Shown piece by piece: positions 1 through 21,065 of a stretch of DNA of 64,000 bases. Where the stretch lies: contig CM000208.1 of the NCBI GenBank assembly GCA_000002445.1, positions 3,936,001-4,000,000 on the forward strand, read 5' to 3'. The translations under genes were made by a program, and so were the position numbers. The DNA comes from Trypanosoma brucei. Its lineage: Eukaryota. Below the pieces are notes generated by a model. That model saw nothing but the letters and a program-made list of their open reading frames with translations, was not told the DNA's origin and did not search any database. The stretch's first letter is position 1. Each line of letters begins with the position of its first letter.

Positions 1-559
1 ATCATCTGCCGTAGATTTTGGCAGAAGACATATATGGGTAAGAACAATGTGTGACTGAAAGTGCCTTTTTTCGCCTTAGTTTTATCAATTCGCTCCGTCA
101 GTTTTGCGTTATCGACAGCCCTGATGGTAATCACTGGTTTTTAGACATCATATTGCTTTTCCAGTGTAACAACGCGTAAATCGTATGGTATCACTATACT
201 TTTTCTCTTCATAGGAATTCTCTGATAGTTCATGTGTTCTTTTCTCATCCCTTTTTCTTCTATATTACATTGCGTTTTGATAAGTAGTATCTCCTTACGC
301 TATTGCGGTGAACAGCGCATTTGTGACATTTCCTCCGTCTTCTATGCTGCGCCTCTTACTGATTGAGGACTCGAAATTCTTTCGTATGATGCTCTCCTGT
401 TCATTTCTGCTCTTGAAACTGCTGATAATCCATTTCACTTTCCCCATTTTCTTTTATTAAAATTTCATAATCGCTCACATGAATTGTTTTTTAACCGACT
501 TATTTCACTGAACATTTTCATTGTTTCCATCGCATCCATTTTACCTGCACTAACGGTCT

Positions 560-632
560 CCAAAACTGTTATTATTATAATATTATTATATACACGCTAA
601 CAACACACTTCTATCATTATTATTATTATAAA
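560..632 (-). repeat. VSG-associated 70-bp repeat, minus orientation, partial/degenerate
   Basis: tataatattattatatacacgctaacaacac is the reverse complement of the 70-bp core ...GTGTTGTGAGTGTGTATATACGAATATTATA, flanked by TTA/TAA triplets. Confidence 0.6.
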
Positions 633-817
633 GTCCCTAATATTTGTTTTTATTATAAATTTACTTAATATCTATAATTAAAAAAACAAAACAAATTAGA
701 ATATCACACATTTTTATATCCTATCATTCTTCTGCTTAACAACGACATGCCACTTTAATTCCAAATTTTAGATTTTATAATCCTTAAATTTCATTAATTT
801 ATTATTATTTAAAACAG

Positions 818-833
818 TGGTAAAATATATCAA
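818..833 (-). promoter_or_regulatory. VSG 3'UTR 16-mer (TGATATATTTTACCAC, 1 mismatch to TGATATATTTTAACAC) downstream of the minus-strand VSG
   Basis: Reverse complement of gtggtaaaatatatca, about 90 bp beyond the VSG stop. Confidence 0.7.
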
Positions 834-920
834 ATCTTAGAAAATTTATTAATTATAGGAAATTCAATCCAAATAATAATATTTAATAACTTTCATCAAA
901 TTGCACAAGAATCCTTAGAA

Positions 921-2448: not shown

Positions 2449-4069
2449 AAGAGTTTCTGGTCTTGGTGTTTTATTTCTTTGGTTGTGGTTTAAAAATAAC
2501 CGATTGATAAGGGTTATAGGGGGAGTGTGTTGTTTTTGTTTACGGCTTGATGTCTTATCCTGCCTTGGTTACTTTCAAGCACTTTCTCGGAGTTAACTGA
2601 CTATTTTTGAGGTTGCCAGCTGTCTTGCCGAGTTTAGTTAGTATTTTCTTTATTATACAGCGACGTTCACTGCGTTTGTTGCTGAAATTTTTCAATTTTG
2701 GTACGGCCATGCCTTGCCGGTTTTTTCAGTTATTAGATTAAGCTGAGTCATTAGGGGGTAGCCATGAACAGGAATCACTTTCTAATTCTCTTTGTCACTC
2801 AGATTCTTAAATTCTGTTGCGATTCTTTTGGAGTCTTCTTTGTGTTCACTTATATCCGCTGCTTCTCGTTTTGTCGTTAAGGTTTGATTTGTTTTACGAT
2901 TTGTCTGAGTGCTTTTATATGGTTGTAAAAAAGCACGCAGTTTCTTATTATAAAACGCAATATTTATTTCAACCTATACCATTAAACATATTTATATAAA
3001 ATAGTTTTCATTTATGGATTCAAATCGGTTCCATATGTCGCTAACTCACATACTATACTTTGAGTTGAAATAAACAAGTTTATCCGTTTTTACCCGTGTT
3101 CACGATTGGCATATTATTCCTGCTCTGAATTCTCTCCAACCGTATTTCGGCGCCGCTTGCAGCTCGATAATTTGTAGTCAGCTTTCACTTTTTTTCGTCT
3201 GTGTAGACTTCTTTATTGTTACCGGTGAACAACTACCATTCTTTTTCCTAATATTTAGTGACTTGTCACTAATTGTAGGTTATATGGTACCGCTATACCA
3301 CAAAGGAAATATTAGAGATTCGCCACTACTTCTCTCTATTTAATAAAGCTCTTATATTAGTTCTTATACCCTCTCTTTAAAGCCCTTTCCGTGTTTAGTA
3401 TCTTCCTTTTCTCTCCACAGTATCCAAATACTTGTCTTACTATTGAAGTTCTCCCCAGATAATATTATATTATTTCCAACAAATTTTGTCAATTAGTATT
3501 ACATCTGAGAAGAAAAATTTGATATTAATTTTCACCTACATAATTCCCTTCTCTTTTTCCTTTTCCTTCCGCAACTTCTTAATCACAGTTTGCTATTAGA
3601 ATTCTCAATCACGTTAAAAATTATAGCCCCAATCAATTAAGCTGCTTCTGCGTTTATCTATTTTTGAATGAAATACGTAGCATCATTGGCTATTTTATGC
3701 CTTCCCCATGTGCTACTTTTTTTCTGTTATACCGTGTATTCTTTCATTTTGGTCCGTATTTTGTTTCATAATTTTTCTCCTCTGTTTTCCTTTCTAACAA
3801 TGACGGAGCTAATACAGTTTATTTGTACACTGCATTCTGTTTTTTTCTCACATACGTATTCATCACATTGCCGTGTATGATGATTCACACATCTTCTTTG
3901 TGCTTGAAACTAAGAAATTACACCTTCTCTATTTCTTCGTTTATATGCACTTCCTTTCATAATATTCCTAGTTCTCTCTAAATTCCCTTCTTAATCGCTC
4001 ACTAACTTTTATTGAACCTTGTCATTGCTTTAAGTGATTCTATCTCGTCAGTCTATTGTGTTATCATTA

Positions 4070-4145
4070 CCACTCTTATTATAATATTAAACTGTACACA
4101 CTCACAACACACTCCTGTCATAACAATAATAATAATTATTTTTTT
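4070..4145 (-). repeat. 70-bp repeat, minus orientation
   Basis: Reverse complement contains GAGTGTGTTGTGAGTGTGTACAG...AATATTAT with a TTA tract. It lies upstream (on the minus strand) of VSG 921-2448. Confidence 0.65.
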
Positions 4146-4400
4146 TAGTAGAATAACCATAAGTTGCTCCTAATATCAAAGTATATAAAAAACATACTAA
4201 ATACGAATACTAATCAATTTTTATATTTTTTACTCTACTAATTTACACATATGGGCCGCATTCATAAACATTTTGCTAGTATTTAATTTTTTTATTTTTA
4301 CTAATAATACATTTTCAATAAAAAAGTATTGGAGCCATCAAATTATAGCAAATTCTTACACAAAATAAGTTTCTTACTTCGAAAAATGGAGATAAAATCC

Positions 4401-5859
4401 TTAAAACAGCAAGGCCACATAAGCAGCATCTATCAGATCCAATTTCTTGTTGACTAGAATAGAGGAATCTTTGCACTTGTTATCTTCCCATTTGCAACCA
4501 TCTTTGCAGTCCTCTTGTTTTTTCTTTTCGGAGCACTTTTAGTCAGTTTTTTTTCTCCTGCAGCTCCATCTTCTGTTCCTGCTGCTTTGGGTGCTTGTTC
4601 TGCTGCTTTTTTGTATCTAATGAGCATCTTTTGTCTTTTTCAGCCGCGGTTTCGTCCCACTTGCATGGGTCTTTGCAGTCGTGTTTTGATTGGTGTTTGT
4701 TACAGTCTGGTTCCTTTTTTTTCGGATGTGCTGTCTGGTCGCCTTCTATTTTTTGAAGCTGAGGCTGGTCTCCTTTGGCCGCCTTAAGATATTCCTGTAT
4801 CGCAATGCTGCGAAGTTGCCTTATTTCTGTTAGGGCTGCTATGTTTTGTGCTTTTTGGACTTTTGCTGTTTTCAGTTTGTCTGCGGCTTCCTGTAGCTTG
4901 GTTAGCCATGGTATCGTCATCTCGCCTCCGCCGTTGGCTTTGTACTTGACGCAGCCAGGGTTGGCGGCGCCGTTGCAGGTAGCCGCGTTTTTCGTGCCGA
5001 GTATTAAATTTTTCGCTTGGCTGCTGCCGGACTTGTCCTTTAAGCCGGTTATGAATGCTCCTATCGTTGCCTGTATTGCTGCTGCGCTAACTTTGGTCTT
5101 TCCGGCTGTTGGGCAGCCATCGAGTAGTTGTGCTGCGCATGTGTGGGCCGAGTTCTGATTCGTGTAGACACATACGCTGGCGCCGGCTGCTCCAAGGCAT
5201 TCGTCGGCATTGTTGCTCCCGCTGGTTGAGCTGCACAGGCAGACCATATCCGAGATCAGCGACATGCCCGGTTTGGCAGCCGCTGCCCCGGGTGCTGAGC
5301 ATGCGTTGGCCCCCGTCGCCCCGAAGCTTTCGCCTGCCGTCTGCGATAGCGATTTGGTCGGGCCGTAGAGTGCTGTCAGCAGCGCTTCTTCCACTTCCGT
5401 TTTCTTTAATGGTTTGTAATCTTCGCGTCTTTCTAGAGCCATCTCCAGGGTTCTATTTATTACAACTGCCGCTGTCTGCCGGGCGTGGCTGTTGAGCGGC
5501 CGGGTGATTTTCAGACCGTGGGCCTCAAGCTTATTTCCTGCAATCTGTTCTTTTGCTGCATGCCAGGCCGCGCGGTGCTTAACCCAATTTGCTTCTGTGA
5601 TCTTGTTATTTGGATCCTCCTTAAAGTCCTGGTTGTAGAAGTCGTCGTCTGCTACTGTTATATTTAGTTCTGTGAGCAAAGTTATTTCCTGACTTATAGC
5701 TGCGCCTTCGGTGTCTTCTGGCGTTTTTGGCTCCCCTCTTGCGATGTTTACAATTGCGCACAGGGTATGGTAGGCTGGTACGGCTTCATTGGCAGTTCCG
5801 CTGGCTTTGTACGCTAGTCGGGCAATGATCGCCAGCATTACAACAATGCTTGACTCCAT
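4401..5859 (-). pseudogene. VSG (A-type), near-intact; C-terminal GPI-signal exon out of frame
   Basis: 438-aa ORF 4543-5859 has a signal peptide, NITVADDDF, EEALLTALYGP, MVCLCSS, GCVKYKANGGGEMTIPW and CKDPCKWDE. The downstream frame 4401-4540 encodes KDGCKWEDNKCKDSSILVNKKLDLIDAAYVALLF*. The frame breaks at an A8 homopolymer with a TAA near 4540-4557. Confidence 0.8.
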
Positions 5860-8685
5860 TTTTACTGTTTATTGGCTGTGTTTTCTTCTTAGTGTTGATA
5901 AGGTAGCTGATGAGTTTCAAGGCTTCTTGGGGGGAAACTATAGGGGTTTTAACAGCCGGTTACGATGCGATATAGCATTACTAATTGTGTCTAAGCTTCT
6001 CACTGCTGAAGTAAGTTACTTTCCGTTGCCCGCGTCCGCTGATCTGTTGTTAGCTCGTGTTTATGTGTTTGAATGCTGCTGTTTAGTGGATTTATTTATT
6101 GGACTTGCTGTTGGTTGTTGAAATTAACTAAAAGTTGCGTGTTCTGTTCTATTATACCCATGTTGCAGCAGTTAAAACCCATTGGAGGCTCGTCTTCATG
6201 TCGACACAAACAAGTGCCGTTATGAGCTGTGAGAGAGGCCTTAACCAGGTGCCTGTAAAGCTGGGTGATTTTTTGTTTGGTATCTCCGTGAGGCGGCGGT
6301 TGGCTCAGCTTCATTTGTGCTTTGGAGTTGATAACCCGCCGAGTAGCACAACTTTTTTTGCATTCGCGTTTAGGGAAGCGAGTTAGTTGAGTTAAGTTTC
6401 CGGCCTGCTGTTGTTGGTGTCTTTGGGCTGCCTGACTCCGCTGTTTGTAGTATAGCCAAGTAAAACGTGCATTGGCTTTGTCCTTGGACTAGCAAGTACG
6501 GCGGATTTTTGGTGCTTTGCTTGATGCTGGAGGAAGCTATAAGGGAGATTAAATGGTTGCTGGAAGTGGCGATTCCTTAATAATTTTTCTTGTTTAACAT
6601 AGGTTTGATTTTACTGTCGTATATCACTTCACTTCAAATCTTTTAAATATGCCATGTAAGCTCCTCCTCCTAACCAATACTTATTATATTCTAAACGGTA
6701 ACGAAAAACTTGATTTTATCTAATAAATTTTCCAATTCTTTTAGGTAAAGAGTTGCTAAGACTCTGTATCTGTACGCAACCTTAAGATGCAGCCGCTTTT
6801 TTTACTCCTCTACCTTTTCCGTTTTGTTTCATTATCCTGCATGCTGTTAAATTGGTTAAATATGCCGCCACTTTCTCGCCCTTGGCTTGCGTGTGTCGGA
6901 CTTTTTGTAAGATACTCACTTTCAGATGTTTTGAATGTCACTTATCAACTATATTCCTCGACTTTGAACGCTGCGTATTTATGATAGTCGTTTGAGTGAG
7001 AATACTGCATTATTAAAAGGTTGTTTGAAAGCATATTAGATATAGAGTGTCCAGAAAACTACCGTTTCTTCCTTAGGGTAATGTCAGTGCCATCTTTTGA
7101 CATTATTTTTTATCGATTATGATAAAAGACTCGTTAATAAAAAATATAATTTTAAACCTTAAATAATTGTGTTTTTTATACGTTAAACCTATGAAAATGT
7201 ATATTTACTATATAGCCACAGAACAATTAAGAAAATGATTAAACATTTTCAAGATAAATTATGGTTTTCAAATAGTTTATATTTTCAATTCTAGTCTTCG
7301 CCGCCTCTTTGCCTCTATAAAAAGATGAATTATTGACTCCCCACAGAATATTAAAAGAATTATATTTAATTAATTTCGTATTAGTAAAGATAAAAAACAG
7401 CAAAAAATATATGTAGGCATATACTTAAATTATCACACTAATTGGGTGAGTTTTGCATATTATAAACTTACGAAGAGATTCGGTTCACCATAGAAACTGA
7501 CGCTAACCACGGTATAGATTTTGCTTATCGACGTGCTTTCACTCTTAAATCTAATTTATATTGGTCTATATTTAAATAATATATCCCTTTCATCGATTGG
7601 TAACTCTGATCTTTTAAATGGAAATACTTTTTACTTCATCTTAAAATTTTAAGCTTATAACTCGGTAATACTTTCATTTTGTGAACACCTTCCATTTTAT
7701 CCTAGAGTAATAATATAAGTCTCCAACTTTTTAAAGGGCATGACTTTTCTTCCGCTTTTTTATATCGTTGATGTTTTCAGCTGCTTGTCCTTGTTATTTT
7801 CAATATTGGTGTAAATTGAATTTTCCTTACTTTATTTTCCGGATACCTAATGTGTTCAAGTAAGGTCTCATCATATCTTATTCTTGTGCTGATCTGGTGT
7901 CCTTTAACTACAGATAACTTATCACTCTCATACCAATGCCTAATTTGAGATACTATTACTGGGTTTTTGTATTTCATGGACATGTGGCAACATTTGAAGT
8001 GATATTTTAAGCGATTTATGTGTTTTTACTCTTTTTTACTGTTCAAAGTAATCTATTATTAGCTCACCTATTAAAATTCTCCTCCCCATAATATCATTCT
8101 GTTTACAACAAACGATAGTGTTTATTTCTACATCTTATGAGAAGAAACCAAAGTTGTCCCATACTCACAGTCACCTAATCCATTCTTCTTTTGGTTTCCC
8201 CTTAACAACTGTTTATTTGGGACCGGCATCTTATTACAATTCGTGGGGAAACTATTTTCTAAGCTGTTTCATCTGCACGTTTGTTTGTGAAATATAGAGT
8301 ATATTTTCTTCCTGCGCCATTCTCTCCACCGCTTGCCTCTTGCGTATCCAGTTGGTTCATTCACTATTGATTTCTTCTTGCCGTTCGATTGATTCTATCC
8401 TCGCCCTAACTTTGCGACTTCATCTGCGCTGTGCAGTTGAAACTTCCTTTCCCTCATTATCCTCTCCATTACACCTTTGTGTAAGATAATTTGTGTCGTC
8501 ATGCTTATATTTAAAATTTTGCATATGCCGTGCCTCTCTATGTTTCTGCGTTTCCTTTAATAATATTCTTCGTGCTGTTACACCCCTCTTGTACTCACCA
8601 TCTTGCCTTCTTACTTTCACTGCGTACTTGTCATTTTTTAAACTATTTCCATATTGGATTATCATTTAGACTTCAAACACTAAAT

Positions 8686-8725
8686 ATTATAATATTATTA
8701 TATATATACTCACACCATGGTCCTA
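8686..8725 (-). repeat. Partial 70-bp repeat in minus orientation, abutting plus-oriented repeats (inversion junction)
   Basis: tataatattattatatatatactcacacc is the reverse complement of GGTGTGAGTATATATATAATAATATTATA. Confidence 0.5.
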
Positions 8726-8739
8726 TCATTTTTATTATT

Positions 8740-8770
<31 letters not shown>

Positions 8771-8945
8771 CTATTATTATTATTATAGAATAGTGTTGTG
8801 AGTGTGTGTATATACTAATATTATAACAAGAGCAGTAACAATAGTAATAATAATGATAATAATAATAATGATAATAATAATAGGAGACTGTTGTGAGTGT
8901 GTATATACAAATATTATAATAAGAGCATTGTTTAAGAATAAATGG
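8726..8945 (+). repeat. 70-bp repeats, plus orientation (about 2-3 units)
   Basis: TTA/TAA tracts followed by GAATAGTGTTGTGAGTGTGTGTATATACTAATATTATAACAAGAGCAG and GGAGACTGTTGTGAGTGTGTATATACAAATATTATAATAAGAGCA. Confidence 0.8.
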
Positions 8946-9867
8946 ACGAGAATAAAAAAACCCTTAAAGCGATATTTTTGTGCAATGGCAACAAGAGGGG
9001 GTGTGAGAGTAAGCACGAACAATATTATTAAAGGAAAGAGAGAAAAATGTAGACAAAACATGGTTAGTTTTAATTAAAAAACAAATGAACTGAAAATGCA
9101 CAGGAGATGATGGAGTGGACAGAGATGGAGAGATTTAGTGCTATGTACATGGCTAATAAACACTTTACGTTATGTGCTATGATAGTGCTCTACACAGGAA
9201 AAAAACAAATCAACAGTATTCACAGCCCCACAAAAAGGCGAAGGAGGAACCACAGATTCTCCATATTTTACTCAAAAAATAATAACTACAACTAGAGAGA
9301 TTATAACAACTGTGTTTTTTATTCTGCTTATGAATCCTGATGTCAAGCGCTTAAACAAGAAAGTAAGCGTTCATAGTGTGAATGCAGATTTTCCGTTAAT
9401 ATAAGGACATTATTTTTTTTGAAATTTTCTTCGTGCCTTCGTGAGAGTTTCCCCCCACTGGCGCGGCCATCAGCCATCACTGTAGAGCCCTGAGATGCTA
9501 TCGATCTGTCGACTGTGGCAGAGTCTCCCTTTTTTATTAAGCCTAACACACCCTCTATAATTTTTGTTGTAACTCCGCATTTGAATGGAATACAGCAGAT
9601 CGGGCGAGAAGCCACCCACCCCGGACTCTCCAAAAGATGTCAATTAGCAATCCTTTTGTTTTGATTTTTGTTATTCGTTTATTATTCTCTCCCTCTCCCT
9701 CTCTTTCTGTTTCTGTTGCTTGTTGACTGCATACCCCTCTCTGTCTCTGAGGGTGTCTGGACTATTCCTGCGTCCGGTGCTTTTCCTGCTAGCTCCACTC
9801 TCGGAAATAAGGGGGGAAGTTGCAGAAGGGAGAGTGAGTTGTATGACTGTTACATTAGGTGAGGACT

Positions 9868-10800
9868 TCACCTGCGGCCGGCTCCGTTCAACCGCAATGA
9901 GAAATTGCGCCAGCCTTTTAGAGAAACATACATCTTGCACACACACACACCTTCTACCGCAAACCTGACACGTAACTCCTTCAAACCGGGACAGCTCATT
10001 AAGTGCAGCGACGTTTCTTCGCAGTCGCCGCGTTGGCTGGTAACAGCGCGCTCTACCTTCATACCGTTCATCTTCTTTTGATGTAGGGTGAGGCCAGTTT
10101 TGCTAGCACACTGCCTTCCGCATGTCTGGCACACCAACATGGATGCGTTTGTATGCGGGGAATCAGTGGCACACAATTTTGTGCTTTTGCTGCATTTAAG
10201 CTCGACTCCCTCACCTTTGTGGAAAGCCTTACAATGTCGGATGAGGGAGTCCCTGCAACTGAGCACTTTTTGGCACACACCACACTGCACCTCGCCCTTC
10301 CCCGGGACGTTAACATTTCCCTCACGGGCACGCTTACGAGGGAATTGCACCACCACCACGGTACCGTCCTCAGTCACTATGCTTTTATGTTTGAATTTCT
10401 TGTGTAGTGACAGGGAAGAGCGTGTACCGAAGCTCGCCTCACACAGGTCACATTGAAACGGCAGCTTCCGTGTATCCTGAGAGGCTGGCGCTGCTGGGGC
10501 TCTACCATCTCCTTGCAATGAGTTTTCGTTCTCTCGCCCCCTTTTCACGCGGCAACTACCGCTGCCTATGCCATGTATTGTTCTAAGGTGGTGTAATAGT
10601 CGGCCTGGCACTGCGAATTTGGAGGCACAGAGGGTACAATGAAGCACCTGCAGTCTCATCGGGACTCGTGTGCTCGATGGTAGAGGAACGATCGCCACCA
10701 CTGGAGAGGGTTCCGGGGGGATGTCCACTGCAGGTGTTGCATCGCCGTATTTGATCCTCCGGAGGGCATCAGCTCGCACAAACCCATGTTTGTTTACCAT
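9868..10800 (-). pseudogene. ingi C-terminal C2H2 zinc-finger domain segment
   Basis: 310-aa ORF with repeated C-x2-C...H-x3-5-H fingers: CTLCASKF...HHLRTIH, CDLCEASF...HKKFKH, CGVCQKVL...HCKAFH, CQTCGRQC...HQKKMNG. Confidence 0.7.
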
Positions 10801-10805
10801 GTGCG

Positions 10806-11405
10806 TTACAGCACTCGAGCGGCATTGGTATGTGGCATCACATTCCGTACATTTGGTCGGTTCGGAGGTTTTCTGAAGAGTGCATGTCGCAACAGGTGGG
10901 GTTGTTTGTATTGTATTGTTGGTCCTATCGCTGCATGTTTCTGGTTACACCATCGGCACTGTGAGGGCACACTCGGGTTGATCTTTCGCAACATCCATCC
11001 ATAGTGTCTTGAAGACCCAACCCGAAAGCGTGCCAGTGCCGTTTCTTCTTCCCTCGGCAGTTCTTCTTTATGTTTTGTTGGAAAGTGGTTGCCCGTGATA
11101 CCAAACCTATGAGTGTTCTCATGGACTTCTTCCGACCTAAGCACTCGCTTCGCATAAGCAATGATGTCGGGGATCCATGTGTCTCGCAACTGTGGTAAAT
11201 CTGCGGCCTTTTTGGCCATTTCATCACAAACCTCATTCCGTTTCACGCCACAATGGCCAAACACAAATTGCAGTCGGATACGCACCTTCCTTCTCTGAAC
11301 TTGAAGCAGAAGCCTCCATAGTCGTCTTAGAATTGGGTCCGTTACGGCTAGGGGGCCTGTCTGCAGTGCTTTTAACATTGACAGCGAGTCAGAGAAGATG
11401 GACAA
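10806..11405 (-). pseudogene. ingi RNase H domain segment (frame-shifted relative to the RT ORF)
   Basis: 199-aa ORF with RLQFVFGHCGVKRNEVCDEMAKKAA, an RNase H-like motif of ingi/L1Tc elements. Confidence 0.7.
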
Positions 11406-11600
11406 CCTGCTCGGTGTGCTTCTGTATGCCGGAAGCCATTTCAGCAGCCGTTGCAGTCCTATCTCTAATGCTACGCATTCCGCTCTGTAACTGCATTAGA
11501 GTTCCCCTGCTCCGGTTTTGGGTGCGCAAATCAGTGTATTGTTTCTATAGAGCAGGGCAGCTGCTCCGGACTCCTCACCGAGGGACACGGATCCATCAGT

Positions 11601-14600
11601 TCACAATTCGTAGTGCTCTCGTCGCGGTGGCTCCTTCCCCCTCCGTGAAAAATGCCGTGCAATCCACTTTTCGGAAGCCTCCCTTTTGACATCGTCAGGG
11701 TCATCAGCGCACACAGGCTTTATCTGCGTGTGAAATAGTCGTCGGCAGCTGTGGCGGAGCGTCGATGTCTCTAGTGGGTGCTCGCGTGGCTCAATGCGGA
11801 GGTGGGGATAGGACCGCATGATGCGGGAGTGTAGGGCTCTGACTGGGTGTTTGCTGTGATATACTTCCTCAGAACTGCGACGCAAACATCCGCCTCGTGA
11901 CTCACACATCAGCATGAATTTCATGATGCGCACAAGAGTGGTCGTCTTGAGTGGCAGGAGGTTTGCTTCCAGCAGAGAGTCCTCATTGCGCGTCCCATGC
12001 GGTATGCTAGCTATGATGCGACTGGCTTTGTGTTGCGCTGCTGCAAGGAGGTCGCGACTTCGTTCCGAAGCGTCCCAGTACCATACCTCAATGCCATACA
12101 TGGTGTGTGCCTGTGTGAGTGCTAGATAAAAAGCTCTCAGCACTTGTCGTCTTGGCCCCCATGTAGAAGCTGAGATGGTTGCTATCTGCAGTGGTCTGAA
12201 GTCCATCTTGCGTCTCGTTTCGGCCGTATGTGTTGCCATCCCCTGCAGACACTGGAATGTTACTCCTAGAAGCTTCGGTGTCCTGTCAGCTCCTATTCTT
12301 TCACCGTCCAGTTGTAATGTAAGGGGGTGGCGCTCTATACACCCGAAGAGTGTGCACTTTGTTTTCGCTACGTTGACAGACATGAAGTACTCTTTTGACC
12401 ACTGTAACACTACGTTGAGGCCGCATTGCAGTGTGTGGTTGATGACATCCCTCTCTGTGTGGCTCGCAAGTAGCGTTAGGTCGTCTGCAAAGAATCCGTG
12501 CTGCAGTAATGGCACTTCTGCAAGGCGTTGGCTCAACGAGTTCATGACAATAATGAACATGATTGGGCCAAGGACAGTTCCTTGTGGCACTCCTCGCTCA
12601 AATGTTCTGCTTCTGGAAAGCTTCTCCTTGAATCTCACTCTGCCAGTTCGGTTACTCAGAAATGATACGCACCACTTCACAATGTGGGGTGATACCTTCA
12701 TTCTGTGCATTTCCCTCGCAGTTTTGTCGTGGTCTACTGTATCGAATGCCTTCTCGTAGTCAACAAATACAGCACCCGTACGATATTGGTGCGTTGGACG
12801 GCAGAGGGCAGCGCGGACGTGCAGCAGTTGTTCGAGTGTTGAGCATCCGGGGCGAAAGCCTGATTGCTGCGGCGTCAGCTGGGACTCAACAGTGTCTCTA
12901 AGTCTCGCGGCAATTGTGTGCTCCATGACTTTGCAGAGACAGCTCGTGAGCGTCACAGGCCTGTAAGAATCGAGGTCCTCCGCCTTTTTTCCGGCCTTCA
13001 GGATGGGGATGATAACACCAGTCTTCCATGCAGGCGGGACGACTCCCGTTCGTAGGCTCTCATTGAATAGCCTCAGAACAACATTCAGCGCTGTTCTACC
13101 GAGATGTTGCAGTGCCTCGTTGTATAAGCAATCATGTCCGGCTGCGGATCCACTCGGTAGCAGTTTGATCAATCTCCGTAGTTCAGCCATCGTGATGGGA
13201 CTGAACTCACTCGCTATCGTCTTTATGGGTGCCGGTGGGTGTGAGTCGGGGTGCCTTCTTGCGCGGGACGAGTACAGTTTACTGAACCTCTCAGCTTGAC
13301 GGTAGTCCGTGATGGCCGCGTTATCTACAAGTACAGCCGGTGTTGTTAGTGGTCGTGGCGCATATATCTTCTTGACAATGTGCCAACTGCAGCGGTCTGA
13401 CACCGCAAGTCTGGAGCATAGCGTGCTCCATCTCTTCTTTGTGGTACGGTCCAGGATCTGCTTACGCGTGGCTACCAACTTTTCCCTTCGGTGGGAGGGT
13501 CCGCATCCAGCGATCTCTTCATCGAGTTTCGCGAGCTCAGGTGTCCAATGTGGTGGCGTTGCTCTGCAGCCACGGGGGACGGAGACCTTCGTCGCAATGC
13601 GGATGGCGGAGCTCAATTTCTGTTCCAGGGTGTTGACGTTCTTCTCTCTACCAATTTTCCTGCAGAGCTCGTCAACCTTGAGACGGAAATTCCTCCAGTC
13701 AGCTTTTAGCCATGCGTACATGGGCTTTCGAAGCCGCGGGCAACTCAGTGCATCTGTGTCGTCTCCAACGATAACGTCGAAAAATATGTGATGGTGATCG
13801 CTATCGGGAGAATACAGCGATGTCCACGTGTACACTGTGCAATTCCTTGACAGTGTCACATCAGGGGTGGACTCCCCGTGGTGGCGCGCGTACCTGGTGC
13901 ACTCACCAGTGTTGCAGACCAGAAACTGGTTGTCAATGCACCGCTGTGTGAGGGTTTCACCCTTGGTATTTGGTGGGCTCGCGCGATCCCATGCCAACGC
14001 GTGTGCGTTAGCGTCTGCACCGATGAGCTGGGCACCGTCAGTCGTCAGAAGCGTATCTAGGTCAGTTGCCGTGAAGGTGTGTTTTGGTGGGATGTATGCC
14101 GACGTGACAGTCAGCGCCGTTCCACGTGCAAGGTGAATTGTTGCATGCACTTGTTCAATGCGACCAACAAGGGCCATACCGGTCTCGACTGGTAGGTCCT
14201 CCCTCACTAGTATTGATACACCACCTCCTTTGCAGTTACAAGCTATTCCGTGATGTTGGTAGCCAGCAACGCTAAAGCAACCCGCCTCTCCAGGCGTCAT
14301 CCTTGTCTCGCTCAACAGACAAAAGGCGATCCGCTCATCAACAAGGGTTTTGTGGAGTGCTAATCTCTTTCCTTGAGATAGCCCGGCGCAGTTCCACTGC
14401 ATCCCGCACAACGACGGGCCGGGATTCTCTTCCACATCACCGGAAAGCAGCATCTTAGTGCGGATGATACTGCTGATGGCACGCTGGTACGTGCCCCGGG
14501 ACCGACAAATGAAGAACGGTGTCCCAACAAGACGCTGCTGATCCCTGTGCTGTATGATGCCGTAGCCGGAGCACAGCAGTGTTCCCCATGAAAGGAACGC

Positions 14601-14669
14601 TGCTGGCTCTTGGCTTCCCCCGATGATACGGGGTACTGGACCCTGGAACCACGTTGAGGTGGCCGGCAT
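11601..14669 (-). CDS. ingi ORF: N-terminal 2A peptide, AP endonuclease and reverse transcriptase polyprotein (intact 1022-aa frame)
   Basis: MLLSGDVEENPGP (2A consensus D[V/I]ExNPGP) at aa 72-84. The AP endonuclease/RT region contains the RT signature HGFFADDLTLLASH. Confidence 0.85.
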   Translation of the reverse strand: MPATSTWFQGPVPRIIGGSQEPAAFLSWGTLLCSGYGIIQHRDQQRLVGTPFFICRSRGTYQRAISSIIRTKMLLSGDVEENPGPSLCGMQWNCAGLSQGKRLALHKTLVDERIAFCLLSETRMTPGEAGCFSVAGYQHHGIACNCKGGGVSILVREDLPVETGMALVGRIEQVHATIHLARGTALTVTSAYIPPKHTFTATDLDTLLTTDGAQLIGADANAHALAWDRASPPNTKGETLTQRCIDNQFLVCNTGECTRYARHHGESTPDVTLSRNCTVYTWTSLYSPDSDHHHIFFDVIVGDDTDALSCPRLRKPMYAWLKADWRNFRLKVDELCRKIGREKNVNTLEQKLSSAIRIATKVSVPRGCRATPPHWTPELAKLDEEIAGCGPSHRREKLVATRKQILDRTTKKRWSTLCSRLAVSDRCSWHIVKKIYAPRPLTTPAVLVDNAAITDYRQAERFSKLYSSRARRHPDSHPPAPIKTIASEFSPITMAELRRLIKLLPSGSAAGHDCLYNEALQHLGRTALNVVLRLFNESLRTGVVPPAWKTGVIIPILKAGKKAEDLDSYRPVTLTSCLCKVMEHTIAARLRDTVESQLTPQQSGFRPGCSTLEQLLHVRAALCRPTHQYRTGAVFVDYEKAFDTVDHDKTAREMHRMKVSPHIVKWCVSFLSNRTGRVRFKEKLSRSRTFERGVPQGTVLGPIMFIIVMNSLSQRLAEVPLLQHGFFADDLTLLASHTERDVINHTLQCGLNVVLQWSKEYFMSVNVAKTKCTLFGCIERHPLTLQLDGERIGADRTPKLLGVTFQCLQGMATHTAETRRKMDFRPLQIATISASTWGPRRQVLRAFYLALTQAHTMYGIEVWYWDASERSRDLLAAAQHKASRIIASIPHGTRNEDSLLEANLLPLKTTTLVRIMKFMLMCESRGGCLRRSSEEVYHSKHPVRALHSRIMRSYPHLRIEPREHPLETSTLRHSCRRLFHTQIKPVCADDPDDVKREASEKWIARHFSRRGKEPPRREHYEL
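14418..14441 (-). other. 2A self-cleaving (ribosome-skipping) peptide DVEENPGP within ingi ORF
   Basis: Reverse complement of ggccgggattctcttccacatc encodes DVEENPGP, followed by S. Confidence 0.85.
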
Positions 14670-14949
14670 CGTCAGGGGGTACAGCAGAAAAACGCCGGCG
14701 GCGAAAGCAGCAAACTAATAGCCAACGCGACACAAGCAACAGCGTGGACAACAGCAAACGGCAATCTAAGAACTGCAATGGGAAAATTACGCGGCGGTTT
14801 TCCAAAAGGAACTGCACACAAAGCAACAGCGCAAGCGATCATCTCAGCAGAGACAAAATCCATTCCCTAATCCGAGTAGCAAGCAACATAGGATACCTAG
14901 GCTGGTACGCACAGACGGGATGCGACGGCAGCCCTGACAACGGATTGTG

Positions 14950-15543
14950 TGTAAGGTAAAATAGAGAAATCACAAACACGGTAGATAACTTCAAATAACT
15001 AACTTTTGCAGCCGACTTATACACCGCGGCAAGCCTAATAGAGAAAAGACAGGCAGCACTCAAAAAGGCTGAAGCAACAAAGGCTGCAATTGCGGCAGCA
15101 GTTGAATTAGCATACGGCGCCCACGGTGAAATAGCTGCTCTCACTGCACTAACGGCAGTGACACAACCCCCGGTAAAACAAAATGACATAAAAGACAGTG
15201 ACGCAGTTTTAAACAAGCAAAAAGAATGCGAAGGAATAACAAAAGCAGCTGACTGCAAAAACAATGGAAACTGCAAATGGGAAGGACCTGATGAAAAAGA
15301 CGGAAAACACTGCAAATTTAATATGACAAAGTAGAGCAACAAGAAACACATGCAGGAACTGGAGGGATACAGACAGGTAAAAAGTGTTCTGATCACACTA
15401 AAAAAGAGGCATGTGAGGCAGAGAATGTGGGACTAGCCCCGGGACAAAAGGCTAAATGTGGCTGGATTGAAGAAAAGTGCAAAAATTCTAGTTTTCTCGT
15501 CAATAAGAAATTGGCTGTTAGTATGGATGCCATCTTAATATAA
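14950..15543 (+). pseudogene. VSG 3' fragment (C-terminal domain + GPI signal), 5'-truncated at the ingi boundary
   Basis: Encodes ...ECEGITKAADCKNNGNCKWEGPDEKDGKHCKFNMTK*, then (after a frameshift) ...[54 protein letters not shown]. There is no N-terminal domain upstream before the ingi end. Confidence 0.75.
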
Positions 15544-15618
15544 GGAGAGTTTCAAGGATTTTCCCCCAACTTTTTGAAATTTATGAAATTTGCCATTTTG
15601 AGAGAATTTGCTAAATTT

Positions 15619-15634
15619 TGATATATTTTAACAC
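15619..15634 (+). promoter_or_regulatory. VSG 3'UTR 16-mer, perfect (TGATATATTTTAACAC)
   Basis: Exact match about 75 bp after the VSG stop. Confidence 0.85.
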
Positions 15635-15794
15635 CTTTTGATAAAATTTTTAAAATGTTGAAAAATATGAAATTTTGATAAAATGTATATGATTGTGGCA
15701 TGTGGGTATAAGGAAGTATCGTGATAATGTATAAAAATTAGTGCTATTATAATTTGATTTATTTCACTTATTTTACGGGAATCACTTAAGGTCA

Positions 15795-15900
15795 TAATAC
15801 TAAGAATAATAAGAATAATGATGAAATTAATAATGATAATGATAATAATGATAATTATTTGAGAATATTGTGAGTGTGGATATACGAATATTATAATAAA
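15795..15900 (+). repeat. 70-bp repeat(s)
   Basis: AATAATGATAATGATAATAATGATAATTATTTGAGAATATTGTGAGTGTGGATATACGAATATTATAATAAAC. Confidence 0.8.
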
Positions 15901-16538
15901 CATGCTGTGTAAAACTAAGTGGATAAGTAAATGAAAGCACATAAAACAATGTAAATGGGGTTTTGAGAGCAAGTAAGTGAGTCGAACTATGGAAGACACG
16001 GAACGAAAAAGAGTATTACGAATTTTATTACAAAAACACACAGAAAGAATGAAAGCAAATGATGTGAATTATGCGGAATTTTAAACCTATCGTCACGGTG
16101 GACGTGATGAAACGGAAGCAGAAATGGTGGAGACTGTGGTCTTTTATTTATGACAGCGGAAAAGTTCTTTATAAACGAAAAATTGTCAGTTTGTACATTT
16201 GAATTATAGTATTCGGAAAAAATATAAAGAAATAACTGTAGAAGGAAATGGCTAGCTTTTTCTGAACATATAATGACGCAGCATATGCCGTCGGCTGAAC
16301 AGCCATGAATTTCAACACCGAAAGAATAACAAAATGCAGAGACAATGGGTAAAAGAGAGTTCAGTATTTTTTAACACAATCTGCAACTTATGTTTTTCCA
16401 GAAAAATTGCCGACAACAAAGTTGTATTGCCTCATGAGTGAGGACATAACGCGAGATACCTGTAAAAACAAGCAGAACCCCTGAAAAAAAATGCCAATAA
16501 ACAACGCCTACCATAACCAACTTAAGTGTTAGCAAAAG

Positions 16539-17899
16539 ATGCGGAAAAGCAATCTGACAACATTATTTCGAGTGTTGTTATTAACCGGTGTCTATCCTAT
16601 AACAAATGTACACGCCACGAACGAACACAAAGGGTTAACGGTAGAAACGGCAGTAAAGGTCTGCCTTTTCAGCAACAGGATGAAGGAAACGGCAGGTTAT
16701 GTCGCAGATAAAACAAGAGAGTTTGTCAGCAACACAGACCGACTACGACAGCTAGCAAGTGACATAACAGCGGCGGCACACGGCGACAGCAGCCAATGGA
16801 CACCAGGAGCGAAGTTCACGGCACTTCTTGCAGCAAAGACAGCGACGGACCGGCAGACCGTTACGGAACAACTCACAACAGAAGCGACAAAAGCGGCGGC
16901 AACATACGGAATGTTAGCCGGGCGCATTGAAGAGTTTGTCCAAGTTTTTTATCAAGCGCACAGACAGCAAGGCACAAGGTGCTGGTACAAAACCGGCAGC
17001 GAACGGACAGCAGCCAACGTCCCATGCCTAGATGCCAATGACAAGCTCAAAAAGGCGGCATCACTAGAAAACAAGGCAAGGCCCGACCTAAATACGCCGT
17101 ACAAAGCGCTTGGAAACCTGCAGAGCGGCGGAGCCCACACCAGCGAAACTAACTGCAAACTTCAGAACGGAGCCGCTGACAAAAATGTATACCTTAACAG
17201 CCAAACCAACAATCCGCAAATTAAATGGGGAGGCGGACTCTTTACAACCCCCAACAGCGACCGCGTGATAGCAAGCACAGACTGGGGGCCCAATGGCAAA
17301 GCAGGTGTAACAGCGGGCACATAAAAGGAGTGCGAAAACAACATAGCAGCATTTGACAGAACCGCCGCAACTGTAGAAGCCGATACGCAAATGCAAATCA
17401 AACTGGAAGGTGACGAGACCCCAACACCCGACCCAAAAGATATAGCAAAGGACGAATTCCACAAAGATATCCCCAAAAATAAACTAACGATAACGGCGGC
17501 AGACCTCAAAACAGTGCATGCCAAACTACAGCGATTCATAAAAAGCCACAACAAGGAGGAAGAGAATCTGCGAGGAGCACAGCTGCAGTTTTTGCAACAG
17601 CAGCTGCAATTAAACAAAACGACATGCGAACTAGGGGCAAAACACACCCCGAAAGATTATTGTCAAGTCACTGATACAGAACCACCAAAGTGCAACGACA
17701 AGGAACAGGAAGAATGCAGCACCACTAAAGGTTTCGAATGGAAAAACGACACTTGCAAGATCATCGAAAAAAGACAAAAAGAGGTAGCAGAAAAAGCAGA
17801 CCAAGAAAAGGAGGGAAGGATGGACAAACAAACATCACAGGAAGCAATTCTTTTGTCATTAAAGCTTCCACTCTTTTTCTTGCATTTTTGCCTCTGTAA
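16539..17899 (+). pseudogene. VSG pseudogene (frameshifted)
   Basis: 261-aa N-domain ORF with a signal peptide and cysteine pattern, ending at 17324. The continuation 17391-17924 is in another frame and has a CxC-rich C-domain (CNDKEQEECSTTKGFEWKNDTCKI). The GPI-signal region ends at TAA 17897-17899. Confidence 0.75.
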
Positions 17900-17921
17900 A
17901 ACTCTTAGGAGCTTTTCTGTT

Positions 17922-17937
17922 TGATATATTTTAACAC
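17922..17937 (+). promoter_or_regulatory. VSG 3'UTR 16-mer, perfect
   Basis: TGATATATTTTAACAC. Confidence 0.85.
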
Positions 17938-18334
17938 GTAAAAGTTATCCTGAATAATAATGTGTGTTTCTGTAAAGTTTCTGACTCTAGCTGTTATTTT
18001 TTCCTGATGGAAGAAATTCTCTTTCTTTCATCTTTTTAAAAATTTTTAGGGTTAGGTTTTTTAACCATTTTTAATTTTATTTTTGCGTATTTTGGCGTTT
18101 TTATTGCCAATTTTTTAATTTTCGAAACTTACAATTTTAGAAAGTTTGCTATACTTTAATAAACATAGATATATTTTAAAACTTTGAAAAAAACATAAAT
18201 TGAAGAAATGAGAAAATTTTTAAAAATACGAAAATTTTATTAAAATATGTACAGTAGTTGCCTATAGGTGTAATGTATTATAATGATATTGTATTAACAA
18301 TGAATGTTATTCTAATACGGTTCATTTTTTATGG

Positions 18335-18412
18335 ATATTAGTTAGGATTATGATAGTAATGATAACAGTTATAATGATAATGATAGGAGAGAGTTGTGAG
18401 AGTGTATCATTT
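18335..18412 (+). repeat. 70-bp repeat (single degenerate unit)
   Basis: GATAATGATAGGAGAGAGTTGTGAGAGTGTATCATTTTTGTAACG, preceded by the TTTATGGATATTAGTTAGG boundary motif. Confidence 0.6.
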
Positions 18413-19188
18413 TTGTAACGATAGTGATTCAAATCCAGGACTAACAGGCGAATTGTAGGTGATAGAAACTGTTGAATCACACTTTAATGACACTCATAGT
18501 ATTTGGAAAGTTGTACCTACTGCTCTTTCAGAAAACACAGTAACAAAATCATATGCACCCAAAACTCAGCGAAGAAACTAGAAGTGTTGGAAGCGACTTT
18601 GGAGGATAGATTAATAGCGCCAAACCCGCTGTAATATGAAAAAACTAAAAATATGGGCACAGATAGCGGACAAAACAGCAATATTAGAGCAAAAAAGCCA
18701 GAACCTACTACAGACTCAACAATAGAATGTGTTTATGCGGATATAATGTGACTATAGTGTTGGCTGTCAAAACTGCTGGGATTTCCAGCAGAATTAGGCA
18801 ATGTCTATGATGTTTCAAGAAGATGACAGTAGAAAAGCATAGAGGGGAACGGCAAATGCAGCAGAGTTTATTTTGTGAATTTGTTTGTGGAAGCGTAAGA
18901 AGTTCCATGAAAACTAATAGCAGCAGACACCAAGGGCAGTTCAAGCAGGCGGAGGCATCACAGCACAGCACGGAGATCAAGCTTCCTGCATGAAAAAGCA
19001 ACACCCTCTTTTTTGCCTAAAAATCTTCAACAAAGCAGCCCAACGTTCGCTGTTGACCCCAGACACCAAACAGCATTGATGGGAAATTGCTAAACGACCA
19101 GGGAGCACAAAATCTTGGTGCAACCCCTTCTTTCTGATCAACAGGCAACCTTCTGTACATGTTCATTCAAAAAGAAAGAGCAGAAGAG

Positions 19189-20594
19189 ATGGACAAGCTC
19201 ATGTACCTAACGGCGGCAGCAGCCACAATAATGTTCCACGGAGCGAGCATTGGCGATGCAGCCGATGACCAATAGGCCGAAAACGCACAAGAGTTTGGAG
19301 CGCTCTGTAACTTAATTCGGCTAGCCTCTAAGGGCTTCGATAGTACAGAGATAAAAGTTGCAGACAAAGCAACGCAGCTAGAGGCCGACATACAGCGAGC
19401 GGAGATACTAGCTTACGACAACAAAACAGAGGTAGAAAAACGAGCAAAGGAAGGCACAGAAGGACTTAACAAAGGTGACAAGGCGCTGCCAAAAACTCCA
19501 GTGGGCATAGCAGCAGCAAAGAAAATAAACGAAACAGCGAAGGCGGCAGCAGCCTTGATATCGGCGCTGAAGGACAAGATCAAAAAGGTCGAAGCTGCCA
19601 CGGCCACGGCAAACAAACTCCTTTTCAAAGCAGTGTGGGGAAAAGAAGAAAAGCCGCCGGAGTTAAGCGCAGGTGCCACCTTGCTAGCAGAGGCCAACGT
19701 GCAAGCGATTTTCGGCGACGCGGCTTCAAGCGACAGGACAAAAAACTGCGGAGGCGCCAGGTTCACGCCGATGGCAGACACAAACGTCGGAAAAACGCTA
19801 ATTAACGACTTATTCTGTCTTTGCCTAGATGGAGTTGCCACTATGAAAAACTGCGGCACCAGCAACCATGGCACGGACACAGCAGCTGCCAACTTTCGCA
19901 CACCGCATACCACCATAAACAGCAAATGGGATACTTTGATGACGGAGTGTCCAGCACCACCAACGAAAGTCACAGCAGCAGCTCTACAGGCGGCGCTTAC
20001 AAGCCTCGTCTCGCTCATTGGAGAAAACAAACACAAAACCACGACCAGGACAGAAAACAACAAATACTTTCTCGGTTGGGCAGATACGACAGCTACAGGC
20101 TGCAGCGGCGCGACCAAACAGATTTGTGTAAACTATGCCCCATGGACAAAATCAGCAGCAAACACCGAAATCCGCTGGTAAACAGAAGTGCGGCAGGCAA
20201 TCGAAACAGCGCCAACAGCAGCAACCGAATCAGACATTACTGCCACCATCAACACGCTAACGACAATGAACCTAAGTGTTTGGCACCTATATGAAGCTGG
20301 TTTTTCAGCAAACACAAAAAAAGACAGTGAACCAACAAACGACAAATTAGCACCTGTAGCACAAGTAAATGCAAGAAGCACAAATTAAAGAAGACCTGTG
20401 AAGAAAAGGGTTGCATATGGGAAGGAAAAGGTGATACATATTGGGAGTGCAAACCTAAAGATGGGGAAGGACAGACAAATGAAGCAGGGACACAGGGAGC
20501 TGAAGCATATGGTAAAACCACAAACACCACAGGAAGCAATTCTTTTACCATTAATAAGGCCCCTCTTTTGCTTGCATTTTTTGTTCTAGCATAA
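19189..20594 (+). pseudogene. VSG pseudogene (in-frame stop at codon 30 plus frameshifts)
   Basis: MDKLMYLTAAAATIMFHGASIGDAADDQ* is followed by AQEFGALCNLIRLAS. ORF 19501-20181 has LFCLCLDG. The C-domain has CEEKGCIWEGKGDTYWECKPKDG and the GPI signal ...GSNSFTINKAPLLLAFFVL*. Confidence 0.8.
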
Positions 20595-20631
20595 TCTCCC
20601 TCTCAACTCTCCTTTCTACTTGATATATTTT

Positions 20632-20647
20632 AACACGTAAAAGTTCA
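20632..20647 (+). promoter_or_regulatory. VSG 3'UTR 16-mer, perfect
   Basis: TGATATATTTTAACAC. Confidence 0.85.
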
Positions 20648-20865
20648 CCGAAAAGTTATTAATATTTTTTTGTAAAAATTGTGAATGCGCGTGTGAATTT
20701 TTATACTAAATTAAAATTTATTCCTTTTCTCTTGTTAAGTTTTTAAATTTTTTGCTCTGGTTTTTTACAAGTGCTTAGGCATAGGATTTTTAAGCTTTGT
20801 TTTTCATTTAAAATTTATTTAAAATTTTTATGTTCTCAGTTTTATTTTTTGTTGTTGGGTACTAT

Positions 20866-21065
<200 letters not shown>

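Follow-up and report, generated by a model that had tools for sequence, protein, structure and literature searches.

In the 64-kb window of Trypanosoma brucei DNA that was analysed (the whole stretch of 64,000 nucleotides), an ingi non-LTR retrotransposon on the minus strand sits head-on against a broken VSG gene, with the 5' end of the element adjoining a 5'-truncated VSG on the plus strand. The features of the locus, from the 70-bp repeats on the left to the 3'UTR of the VSG on the right, are collected in Table 1.

Table 1. Features of the ingi/VSG locus, in order of position in the window
Feature	Position	Strand	Details and basis
Imperfect palindrome of head-to-head 70-bp repeats and proximal flanks	8535-9053	none	Inverted-repeat search, blastn, repeat-core scan
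Left (3') ingi flank: AT-rich non-coding spacer downstream of the 70-bp repeats	8931-9412	plus	34% GC; Pfam, tblastn, blastn
Exact 12-mer TTAATATAAGGA	9396-9407	plus	5 nt from the ingi tail; other copy at 15535-15546, at the VSG stop codon
ingi non-LTR retrotransposon, full length, now non-autonomous	9413-14677	minus	5265 bp, 52.6% GC
ingi A8 tail	9413-9420	minus	Sequence reading and 3'-end alignment
Disabled 3' third of the ingi ORF (RNase H, C2H2 zinc-finger region)	9692-11603	minus	tblastn with T. vivax P0002 and with P0023
Intact 1022-aa frame (2A-APE-RT)	11604-14669 (ORF 11601..14669)	minus	ORF list, Pfam
Pr77/HDV-like-ribozyme signature	14599-14677	minus	79 nt, starts CCCTGACG; alignment of 5' ends
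5' flank: presumed original 12-nt target TTCTGCTGTACC (14678-14689) and upstream ingi4 signature	14678-14711	minus	Signature scoring
5'-truncated B-type VSG pseudogene	14678-15543	plus	Three-frame translation, Pfam, tblastn
VSG 3'UTR with conserved 16-mer TGATATATTTTAACAC (15619-15634)	15544-15650	plus	nhmmer VSG 3'-end profile

The termini of the ingi were fixed by alignment, as the original prediction had recommended, against five full-length copies from T. b. equiperdum (loci L001, L003, L004 and L005), to which the element is 95.4-96.5% identical end to end; its positions 1-5265 align with L001A, L003, L004A and L004B, and the alignment with L005 spans positions 1-5255, without the poly(A) tail. 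While the prediction had rightly recognized an ingi, it called the element, in a region given as 9410-15543, near full length, which the alignment corrects to an exactly full-length copy. The comparison copies were located through a VSG match (L001) and then through a cluster of T. b. equiperdum proteins; a protein search with the 1022-aa ingi open reading frame (ORF) had first returned T. congolense and T. vivax relatives only (39-42%), and exact-protein look-ups with that ORF, two intact VSGs of the window, two junction-spanning ORFs and the VSG protein P0007 found no identical record. The element can be assigned to Tbingi, within the ingi4 subclade of the ingi/L1Tc non-LTR retrotransposons, as a degenerate member rather than a different family. 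With Tbingi it shares a length of ~5.25 kb, collinearity with other ingis, the 79-nt Pr77 signature at the 5' end, an A-rich 3' tail, a GC content of ~52% and the layout of a single 2A-APE-RT-RNaseH-zinc-finger coding region; it differs in lacking a 12-bp target-site duplication (TSD), in having an ORF that two nonsense codons and two frameshifts interrupt, and in carrying two private substitutions within the P1 stem of Pr77. Its A tail is the shortest seen, at 8 nt versus 9-12 in the comparison copies. From the consensus of those copies it is separated by 117 substitutions (2.2%), and 74 private substitutions are spread over its whole length. Since the other full-length copies diverge by 1.2-2.6%, a range that takes in the present one, and since four disabling lesions are private to it, its earlier description as a relatively young copy is unsupported; the element is of average age.

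The 1022-aa frame is 95.7% identical to residues 1-1021 of P0023, an intact 1656-aa ingi protein of T. b. equiperdum, and the ORF list and Pfam agree with the earlier reading that it encodes intact 2A, APE and reverse transcriptase segments. The 2A peptide SGDVEENPGP occupies aa 76-85 (DVEENPGP at 14415-14438), an activity for Ingi 2A having been reported (PMC3708506); the APE domain (Exo_endo_phos_2, 1.5e-11) lies at about 13785-14402 and the reverse transcriptase (RVT_1, 6.9e-44) at about 12255-12983. Downstream, Pfam finds RNase_H and zf-C2H2_4 in out-of-frame segments, which upholds the break that had been placed before these domains and allows it to be replaced by four defined lesions, namely the nonsense changes TGG>TGA at 11601-03 and TCA>TAA at 11496-98 and the frameshifts +5 nt (ACAAT) at 10915-19 and +2 nt (GT) at 9949-50. 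None of the four occurs in any of the seven comparison copies. All domains are present and 1022 of about 1656 codons are open, the end of the disabled segment being approximate in that it assumes the same ORF end as in P0023; given the two nonsense codons and two frameshifts, 2A-APE-RT alone would still be translatable. At the other end, position +1 was set by the end of the alignment at 14677 and by the L1Tc Pr77 primer CCCTGGCTCAGCCGG (PMC4748587). The 79-bp ingi signature described in PMC2323293 is present there, with the CCCTGG start, and 77 of its 79 nt are the same as in the five other copies; the two private substitutions are G6>A at 14672 and G31>T at 14647. This is the only Pr77 in the 64-kb window. 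No match to the Pr77 core turned up in a metagenome scan, and an Rfam scan of the ingi returned no ribozyme family, only a sub-threshold chance match to a snoRNA.

The VSG remnant retains the last third of the N-terminal domain and the complete C-terminal domain (Trypan_glycop_C, 5.3e-23); it covers positions 225-351 of the 352 in the Pfam VSG_B profile and is 69% identical to residues 264-386 of P0007. Homology to VSG starts at the first base beyond the ingi 5' end (tblastn with P0007 from 14679) and not at 14950, as had been thought, while the proposed end at 15543 holds, the stop codon lying at 15541-15543. As 866 bp are left, about 0.7-0.8 kb is gone, ~45% of the gene or roughly 230 codons, rather than the 5' two-thirds that the ingi was said to have replaced. 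The loss of the N-terminal ~230 codons, two in-frame TAA codons (14957 and 14996) and two frame changes (about 14861 and about 15320-15332) leave the gene short of a full B-type VSG architecture; it is a pseudogene, whose only conceivable use would be to donate C-terminal segments. Its surroundings are those of a VSG array, with the conserved 16-mer of the 3'UTR downstream (15480-15646 aligns with the nhmmer VSG 3'-end profile, E = 4.8e-20), 70-bp repeats upstream and the ingi separating the repeats from the remnant.

The 70-bp repeats form a palindrome with paired arms at 8685-8787/8819-8921 (82%) and 8535-8576/9012-9053 (83%), and this structure marks a divergent strand switch of the VSG array. 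Plus-orientation repeat cores were located by a core scan at about 8796 and 8889, a plausible distance away, so the left flank is collinear with the VSG. The flank had been described as ordinary spacer devoid of VSG coding, and the second half of that statement is borne out by Pfam and by tblastn with P0007, neither of which detects VSG coding in 8931-9412; the first half is unproven, since blastn gave no match to the other spacers of the window or to six comparison loci. A VSG C-terminal remnant in this flank was rejected, as Pfam was empty, the nhmmer VSG 3'-end profile gave no match at E<=10 and a Smith-Waterman comparison recovered the 12-mer alone, at a score reached by 20 of 500 shuffles.

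At the junctions of the element, the 5' flank TTCTGCTGTACC runs directly into CCCTG and the A8 tail into TAATGTCCTTAT. These two 12-mers match at 4 of 12 positions, with no better register, and neither recurs anywhere in the 64-kb window; a search for a duplication of ~12 bp at the ingi ends thus bears out the original view that this is not a clean insertion with a TSD. A matching duplication accompanied by the VSG 5' half elsewhere would have indicated simple insertion, and the window holds neither, the missing 5' half being nowhere in its 64 kb by tblastn with P0007. Among the comparison copies, both ends can be seen in five, and three of these likewise have no TSD, a reminder that such ingis are common. 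The endonuclease signature of ingi4 is 5'-AxxxxxxxTxxxGTxGGxTxxx^xTxTxxTxxxxx-3' (PMC3820030), and the 5' flank matches it in register at G-22, G-19, G-18, T-11, T-9 and T-6, a score of 6/10 that includes the GG core and all three T positions of the TSD (background P(>=6) = 0.033-0.041), the comparison copies scoring 9, 8, 7, 6 and 3 of 10. The pattern RYNGG-N5-TT, moreover, occurs once in the 863-nt antisense VSG, at this very junction. The match is moderate evidence only that the flank carries an ingi4 target; being in register, it suggests a canonical insertion of which the 3' side was later lost. The 3' flank TAATGTCCTTAT agrees with one of the three signature T positions, which is uninformative, because the score is no higher for the partner TSD that is proven for L001A.

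On balance, the locus probably reflects a canonical antisense insertion of ingi into the VSG followed by loss through recombination with a second ingi or RIME, an order of events and a partner that we infer. Target-primed reverse transcription would have placed the element, antisense and at about codon 230, in a plus-strand B-type VSG that belonged to a subtelomeric array, the ingi endonuclease making the usual 12-nt staggered cut, of which the target and the upstream recognition signature may still stand at the 5' junction. A later loss would have taken away the 3' copy of the duplication along with VSG codons 1 to ~230 and some upstream spacer, most likely because the element recombined homologously with another ingi or RIME of like orientation, be it by unequal exchange, by deletion within a chromatid or by ectopic exchange from one subtelomere to another. 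The product would be one hybrid full-length ingi, with its 5' flank from one insertion and its 3' flank from another, that may afterwards have decayed by way of its two nonsense codons and two frameshifts. An element-linked recombination or deletion had already been suspected, and the absence of a TSD agrees with it, as do a VSG 5' half and flank 12-mers that do not recur in 64 kb.

Recombination of this kind has precedents. In T. b. equiperdum L001, the 5' flank of ingi A equals the 3' flank of the inverted ingi B (a perfect 12-mer, TTGTTGTTTCCA); this exchange of TSDs can be read as the trace left when two ingis recombined within a VSG array, and the pair serves as a positive control and as the direct analogue of the window locus. 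The three comparison copies that are without a TSD retain the ingi4 signature (9, 6 and 7 of 10), as exchange after insertion predicts. ingi and RIME are known to recombine and cause rearrangements (PMC2854126), and both the ingi/RIME rearrangements between T. b. brucei and T. b. gambiense (PMC2854126) and LINE-LINE ectopic recombination display the same mismatched flanks and loss of adjacent sequence. In contrast to these rearrangements, the partner and the reciprocal product are not visible at the window locus, the 64 kb containing no partner element, and recombination here is accordingly something that we infer rather than demonstrate. Nor was an internal breakpoint detected in the ingi by comparison with seven copies, and only seven, which took in nearest neighbours by 500-nt windows; shared minority variants show no switch of nearest relative, and the private substitutions are evenly spread.

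Two other loci are comparable. At L004B of T. b. equiperdum (GCA_003543875.1, CM010672.1), a full-length minus-strand ingi likewise abuts, by its 5' end, a 5'-truncated plus-strand VSG, has no TSD and retains the ingi4 signature (6/10); since the insertion lies at about VSG residue 155 and the flanks are different, L004B arose independently and is not orthologous to the window locus. A 1990 study by Smiley, Aline, Myler and Stuart (Mol Biochem Parasitol) reportedly describes a T. brucei VSG whose 5' flank contains a retroposon without insertional terminal repeats, also an ingi-type element next to a VSG and lacking target-site repeats; that element is said to lie upstream of an intact VSG, whereas the window ingi interrupts and truncates the coding region. 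VSGs of the arrays are mostly pseudogenes already, and ingi/RIME recombination is recognized as one way in which structural change arises. The ingi-truncated VSG is an ordinary retrotransposon-linked rearrangement of T. brucei antigen-gene arrays, and as such known biology; it adds one more documented example of ingi disrupting and rearranging silent VSG genes in the subtelomeres, and a well-resolved one, its termini being exact, its endonuclease signature retained and its decay mutations private.

Of the alternatives to insertion followed by ingi recombination, the one that survives best, though unlikely, is a single step: a nick or break at 9412/9413 would have primed synthesis of the ingi cDNA, the 5' end of which would then have been joined to position 14678, about 1-3 kb distant, and the target DNA in between would have been lost, either by target-site deletion during target-primed reverse transcription or by endonuclease-independent patching of a double-strand break. 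Such an event would of itself leave no TSD while making both junctions exact, at the poly(A) end and at the full-length 5' end, and both flanks are collinear and correctly oriented for one locus. It would, however, make the 5' junction an arbitrary break, and yet the GG core of ingi4 lies exactly 18-19 nt upstream, with T at -11, -9 and -6, and the sole RYNGG-N5-TT site of the antisense VSG falls at that point. Quite improbable is a canonical insertion followed by a deletion through end-joining or microhomology, with endpoints at the A tail and in the upstream spacer and with no second element involved. The short A8 tail, the A/T-rich character of both junctions and the retained 5' signature are all consistent with it, but an endpoint within a few bases of the ingi end would be needed, for which the prior is low, and recombination between elements, which is documented, gives the same precision automatically. 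An assembly artefact, in which two ingi copies were collapsed and the 5' flank of one joined to the 3' flank of the other, is more doubtful still. ingi copies are 5.3 kb long and 95-96% identical, and subtelomeric arrays are difficult to assemble (PMC2854126); against this, the 74 private substitutions over the full length and the four private indel or nonsense lesions give the element the look of one real copy, not of a consensus built from the reads of several, and ingis devoid of a TSD are common in an independent assembly too.

The direct repeat TTAATATAAGGA, found at two places only in about 195 kb, probably arose by chance. Were it a TSD, a 6.1-kb unit (the ingi with 857 nt of antisense VSG) would have been retrotransposed into the 3' end of an orphan VSG by way of a read-through transcript left untrimmed by a mutated 5' HDV-like ribozyme, creating the 12-nt duplication on insertion, and the expected empty site would read ...CCGTTAATATAAGGAGAGTTTCAAGG.... 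The confinement of the 12-mer to both sites, its length, which is that of an ingi TSD, the two private substitutions in the P1 stem and a profile alignment of the right VSG that is weakest exactly at the repeat all favour such a course. So does the reconstructed empty site, which fits the VSG 3'-end profile over the NKK codons and on through the UTR, at 37.6 bits versus 32.1 for the UTR alone and reaches further into the profile than any of 60 controls; the control scores nonetheless overlap its own (maximum 39.3), the left flank alone is not recognized as a VSG tail at E<=10, and the TAAGGA motif, which is common where VSG 3'UTRs begin, accounts for half of the 12-mer. Because 5 nt (TAATG) separate the ingi tail from the repeat and the endonuclease signature upstream of the outer repeat is poor (4/10 against a background mean of about 3, with the GG core absent), this composite retrotransposition is largely rejected, as very improbable. 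If it were true, it would amount to 5' transduction by ingi and to retrotransposon-driven movement of VSG coding segments around the archive, and it is only with a real duplication at the 12-nt repeat that the locus would raise a new question.

Alignment of positions 1-5265 of the window ingi, end to end, with five full-length copies (95.4-96.5 % identity) places its exact termini, which the original prediction had proposed to define by alignment, at 14677 (5') and 9413 (3'). The element begins with CCCTG, agreeing with the +1 position given in PMC4748587 for Pr77, the 79-nt 5' HDV-like-ribozyme signature of ingi, and the 3' end is the final base of an A8 tail; at 5265 bp and 52.6 % GC, the element is in line with the published 5.25 kb and 52.3 % (PMC2323293). 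The comparison copies, seven in total, come from Trypanosoma brucei equiperdum, with a VSG match leading to locus L001 and a protein cluster to loci L003-L006; a protein database search with the first query returned no T. brucei ingi protein among its matches. As predicted, there is a 1022-aa ORF, here on the minus strand, with a 2A motif, an APE endonuclease and a reverse transcriptase (RVT_1), the latter two recognized by Pfam, whereas RNase H and a C2H2 zinc finger fall in two downstream segments outside the open frame (Pfam). The activity of the Ingi 2A is established (PMC3708506). Over residues 1-1021 of P0023, an intact 1656-aa ingi protein, the frame shares 95.7 % identity. The remainder of the coding region is broken by four lesions, all private to the window ingi, being absent from every comparison copy. 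Also private are two Pr77 substitutions, G>A at 14672 (ingi position 6) and G>T at 14647 (position 31), which fall one on each strand of the ribozyme's CCCTGGC/GCCAGGG stem and are non-compensating in register, the other five copies having G at both positions. Divergence from the consensus of the other copies is 2.2 %, within the 1.2-2.6 % of the other full-length copies (1.3 % for the intact one), and thus, judged by its sequence, the element is a complete yet dead copy of ordinary age rather than the relatively young one first supposed.

Coordinates of the features in the window and in the T. b. equiperdum comparison loci
Feature	Position	Strand	Basis or remark
Imperfect palindrome, head-to-head 70-bp repeats and proximal flanks	8535-9053		Strand switch point
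Ingi ORF, 1022 aa, with SGDVEENPGP	11601..14669	minus	ORF list
Nonsense lesion TGG>TGA	11601-03		Removes the conserved W preceding the RNase H TDGS
Nonsense lesion TCA>TAA	11496-98		
5-nt insertion in ingi ORF	10915-19		
2-nt insertion in ingi ORF	9949-50		
VSG remnant, 866 bp	14678-15543	plus	Translation, Pfam, tblastn
L001 ingi A (QSBY01000014.1)	2129-7387	plus	Inverted pair with ingi B
L001 ingi B (QSBY01000014.1)	16324->20597	minus	Inverted pair with ingi A
L004B ingi (CM010672.1)	16902-22127, flank 22128-23087	minus	Full-length, antisense
L005 ingi, 1481-aa ORF, 3' end (QSBY01000016.1)	15190-15260		Ends ...GAAGAAAATT

In three-frame translation, VSG sequence continues right up to the ingi, and residue 263 of P0007, the nearest relative of the remnant (69 % identity over residues 264-386), maps by tblastn to 14679, which moves the start of the remnant from the predicted 14950 to 14678. 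The conceptual 287-aa translation covers VSG_B profile positions 225-351/352 and the full VSG C-terminal domain (Pfam), and is interrupted by two in-frame TAA codons (14957 and 14996) and two frame changes. About 230 codons, or 0.7-0.8 kb, are missing, i.e. roughly 45 % of the VSG and not the 5' two-thirds; no homologue of this part was found anywhere in the window. The left flank on the 3' side of the ingi (8931-9412, 34 % GC) has neither a VSG domain nor a P0007 match, consistent with the earlier view that it lacks VSG coding, and shows no similarity to other spacers in the window or the fetched loci. In the orientation of the element, the 5' flank ends ...GGCGTTTTTCTGCTGTACC before CCCTG, and the 3' flank is A8 followed by TAATGTCCTTATATTAACGG. 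These 12-mers are identical at 4/12 positions, and neither recurs beside an ingi end in the window, which has only one Pr77 copy. The mismatch and the lack of a VSG 5' half in the window uphold the prediction of a rearrangement instead of a clean insertion; a target-site duplication (TSD, 12 nt for ingi) with the VSG 5' half adjacent was looked for and not found.

The Tbingi/TbRIME target signature is 5'-AxxxxxxxTxxxGTxGGxTxxx^xTxTxxTxxxxx-3', in which the arrow is followed by the 12-nt target that becomes duplicated (PMC3820030). In register, the 5' flank of the window ingi agrees with it at 6/10 positions, among them the GG core and each of the three T positions of the TSD, a score reached at no more than 3-4 % of sites across the window or the antisense VSG; the five comparison copies score 9, 8, 7, 6 and 3, the score of 3 belonging to a copy whose TSD contains a 1-nt indel. 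The signature is kept in all three TSD-less copies (L001A, L004B and L005), as expected if insertion was canonical and the matching 3' duplication was lost afterwards; this pattern speaks against a junction at an arbitrary break. Since ingi and RIME recombine, causing rearrangements (PMC2854126; L001, below, is a further instance), and a precise full-length hybrid is the automatic outcome of recombination between elements, the favoured account, which is somewhat more probable than all others together, begins with canonical antisense insertion into a VSG. This copy would then have recombined homologously with another, directly oriented ingi or RIME, at the cost of the 3' duplication, the 5' half of the VSG and some of the spacer; with 70-bp repeats lying 0.67 to 2.3 kb from VSG starts across the window, the total loss would be about 0.85 to 2.5 kb. 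The putative hybrid gave no internal breakpoint signal in comparison with the seven other copies. Everything observed falls within known ingi-element and VSG-array biology.

The lack of a matching duplication might instead date from the insertion of the ingi itself, if this was accompanied by a deletion, which seems improbable. A simple end-joining deletion with one end at the A-tail is rather less probable, and misassembly across ingi copies is quite doubtful. Least probable of all is composite retrotransposition, with the exact 12-mer TTAATATAAGGA, a direct repeat enclosing both ingi and VSG remnant, as the outer duplication. The repeat has the length of an ingi TSD and lies at 9396-9407 and 15535-15546 (at the VSG stop codon) and nowhere else in ~195 kb (window plus six loci), and its rejoined sides can be aligned over more of a VSG 3'-end profile than is the case for all 60 controls. 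However, its left copy is separated from the ingi tail by 5 nt, the outer repeat is preceded by a poor endonuclease signature (4/10), the TAAGGA motif, frequent where VSG 3'UTRs begin, makes up half of the 12-mer, and the left flank by itself is not recognized as a VSG tail by Pfam or the VSG 3'-end nhmmer profile; a TSD of such origin is unlikely.

Among the comparison loci, L004B resembles the window as an independent case in which the 5' end of an antisense ingi adjoins a 5'-truncated VSG without a TSD. An intact ingi (1656-aa ORF) with a near-perfect TSD, TTCTCC(T)TCACA, is found 1.66 kb away in tail-to-tail arrangement. In L001, an identical 12-mer, TTGTTGTTTCCA, is found 5' of ingi A and 3' of the inverted ingi B, i.e. 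one TSD is divided between two copies, which indicates the footprint of an ingi-ingi exchange inverting the ~8.9-kb segment between them within a VSG array; this segment holds VSG fragments including P0011. The L005 ingi, which has apparently lost its 3' end or had it replaced, is without poly(A) tail and TSD.

The window itself is a subtelomeric VSG array of the Trypanosoma brucei type, with VSGs preceded by 70-bp repeat cores, ORFs containing VSG_A, VSG_B and VSG C-terminal domains (Pfam) and nine occurrences of the conserved VSG 3'UTR 16-mer TGATATATTTTAACAC. VSGs are on the minus strand left of ~6 kb and on the plus strand right of ~9 kb, and the divergent switch separating the minus-strand VSG at 4543-5859 from the plus-strand array coincides with the palindrome, which is built from one minus- and two plus-orientation 70-bp repeats with ~40 nt of homologous proximal flank per arm. 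The spacer at 15794-16500, between a 70-bp repeat and the ATG of the next VSG (16539), is 89.8 % identical to a spacer at positions 81-792 of L002, a locus on a T. b. equiperdum chromosome; thus, in contrast to the ingi left flank, some VSG upstream spacers are conserved between loci or strains. Two copies of the 3'UTR 16-mer stand 245 bp apart, at 17922-17937 and, with two mismatches, at 18167-18182, which suggests that the VSG ending near 17924 is immediately followed by an orphan VSG 3'-end fragment.
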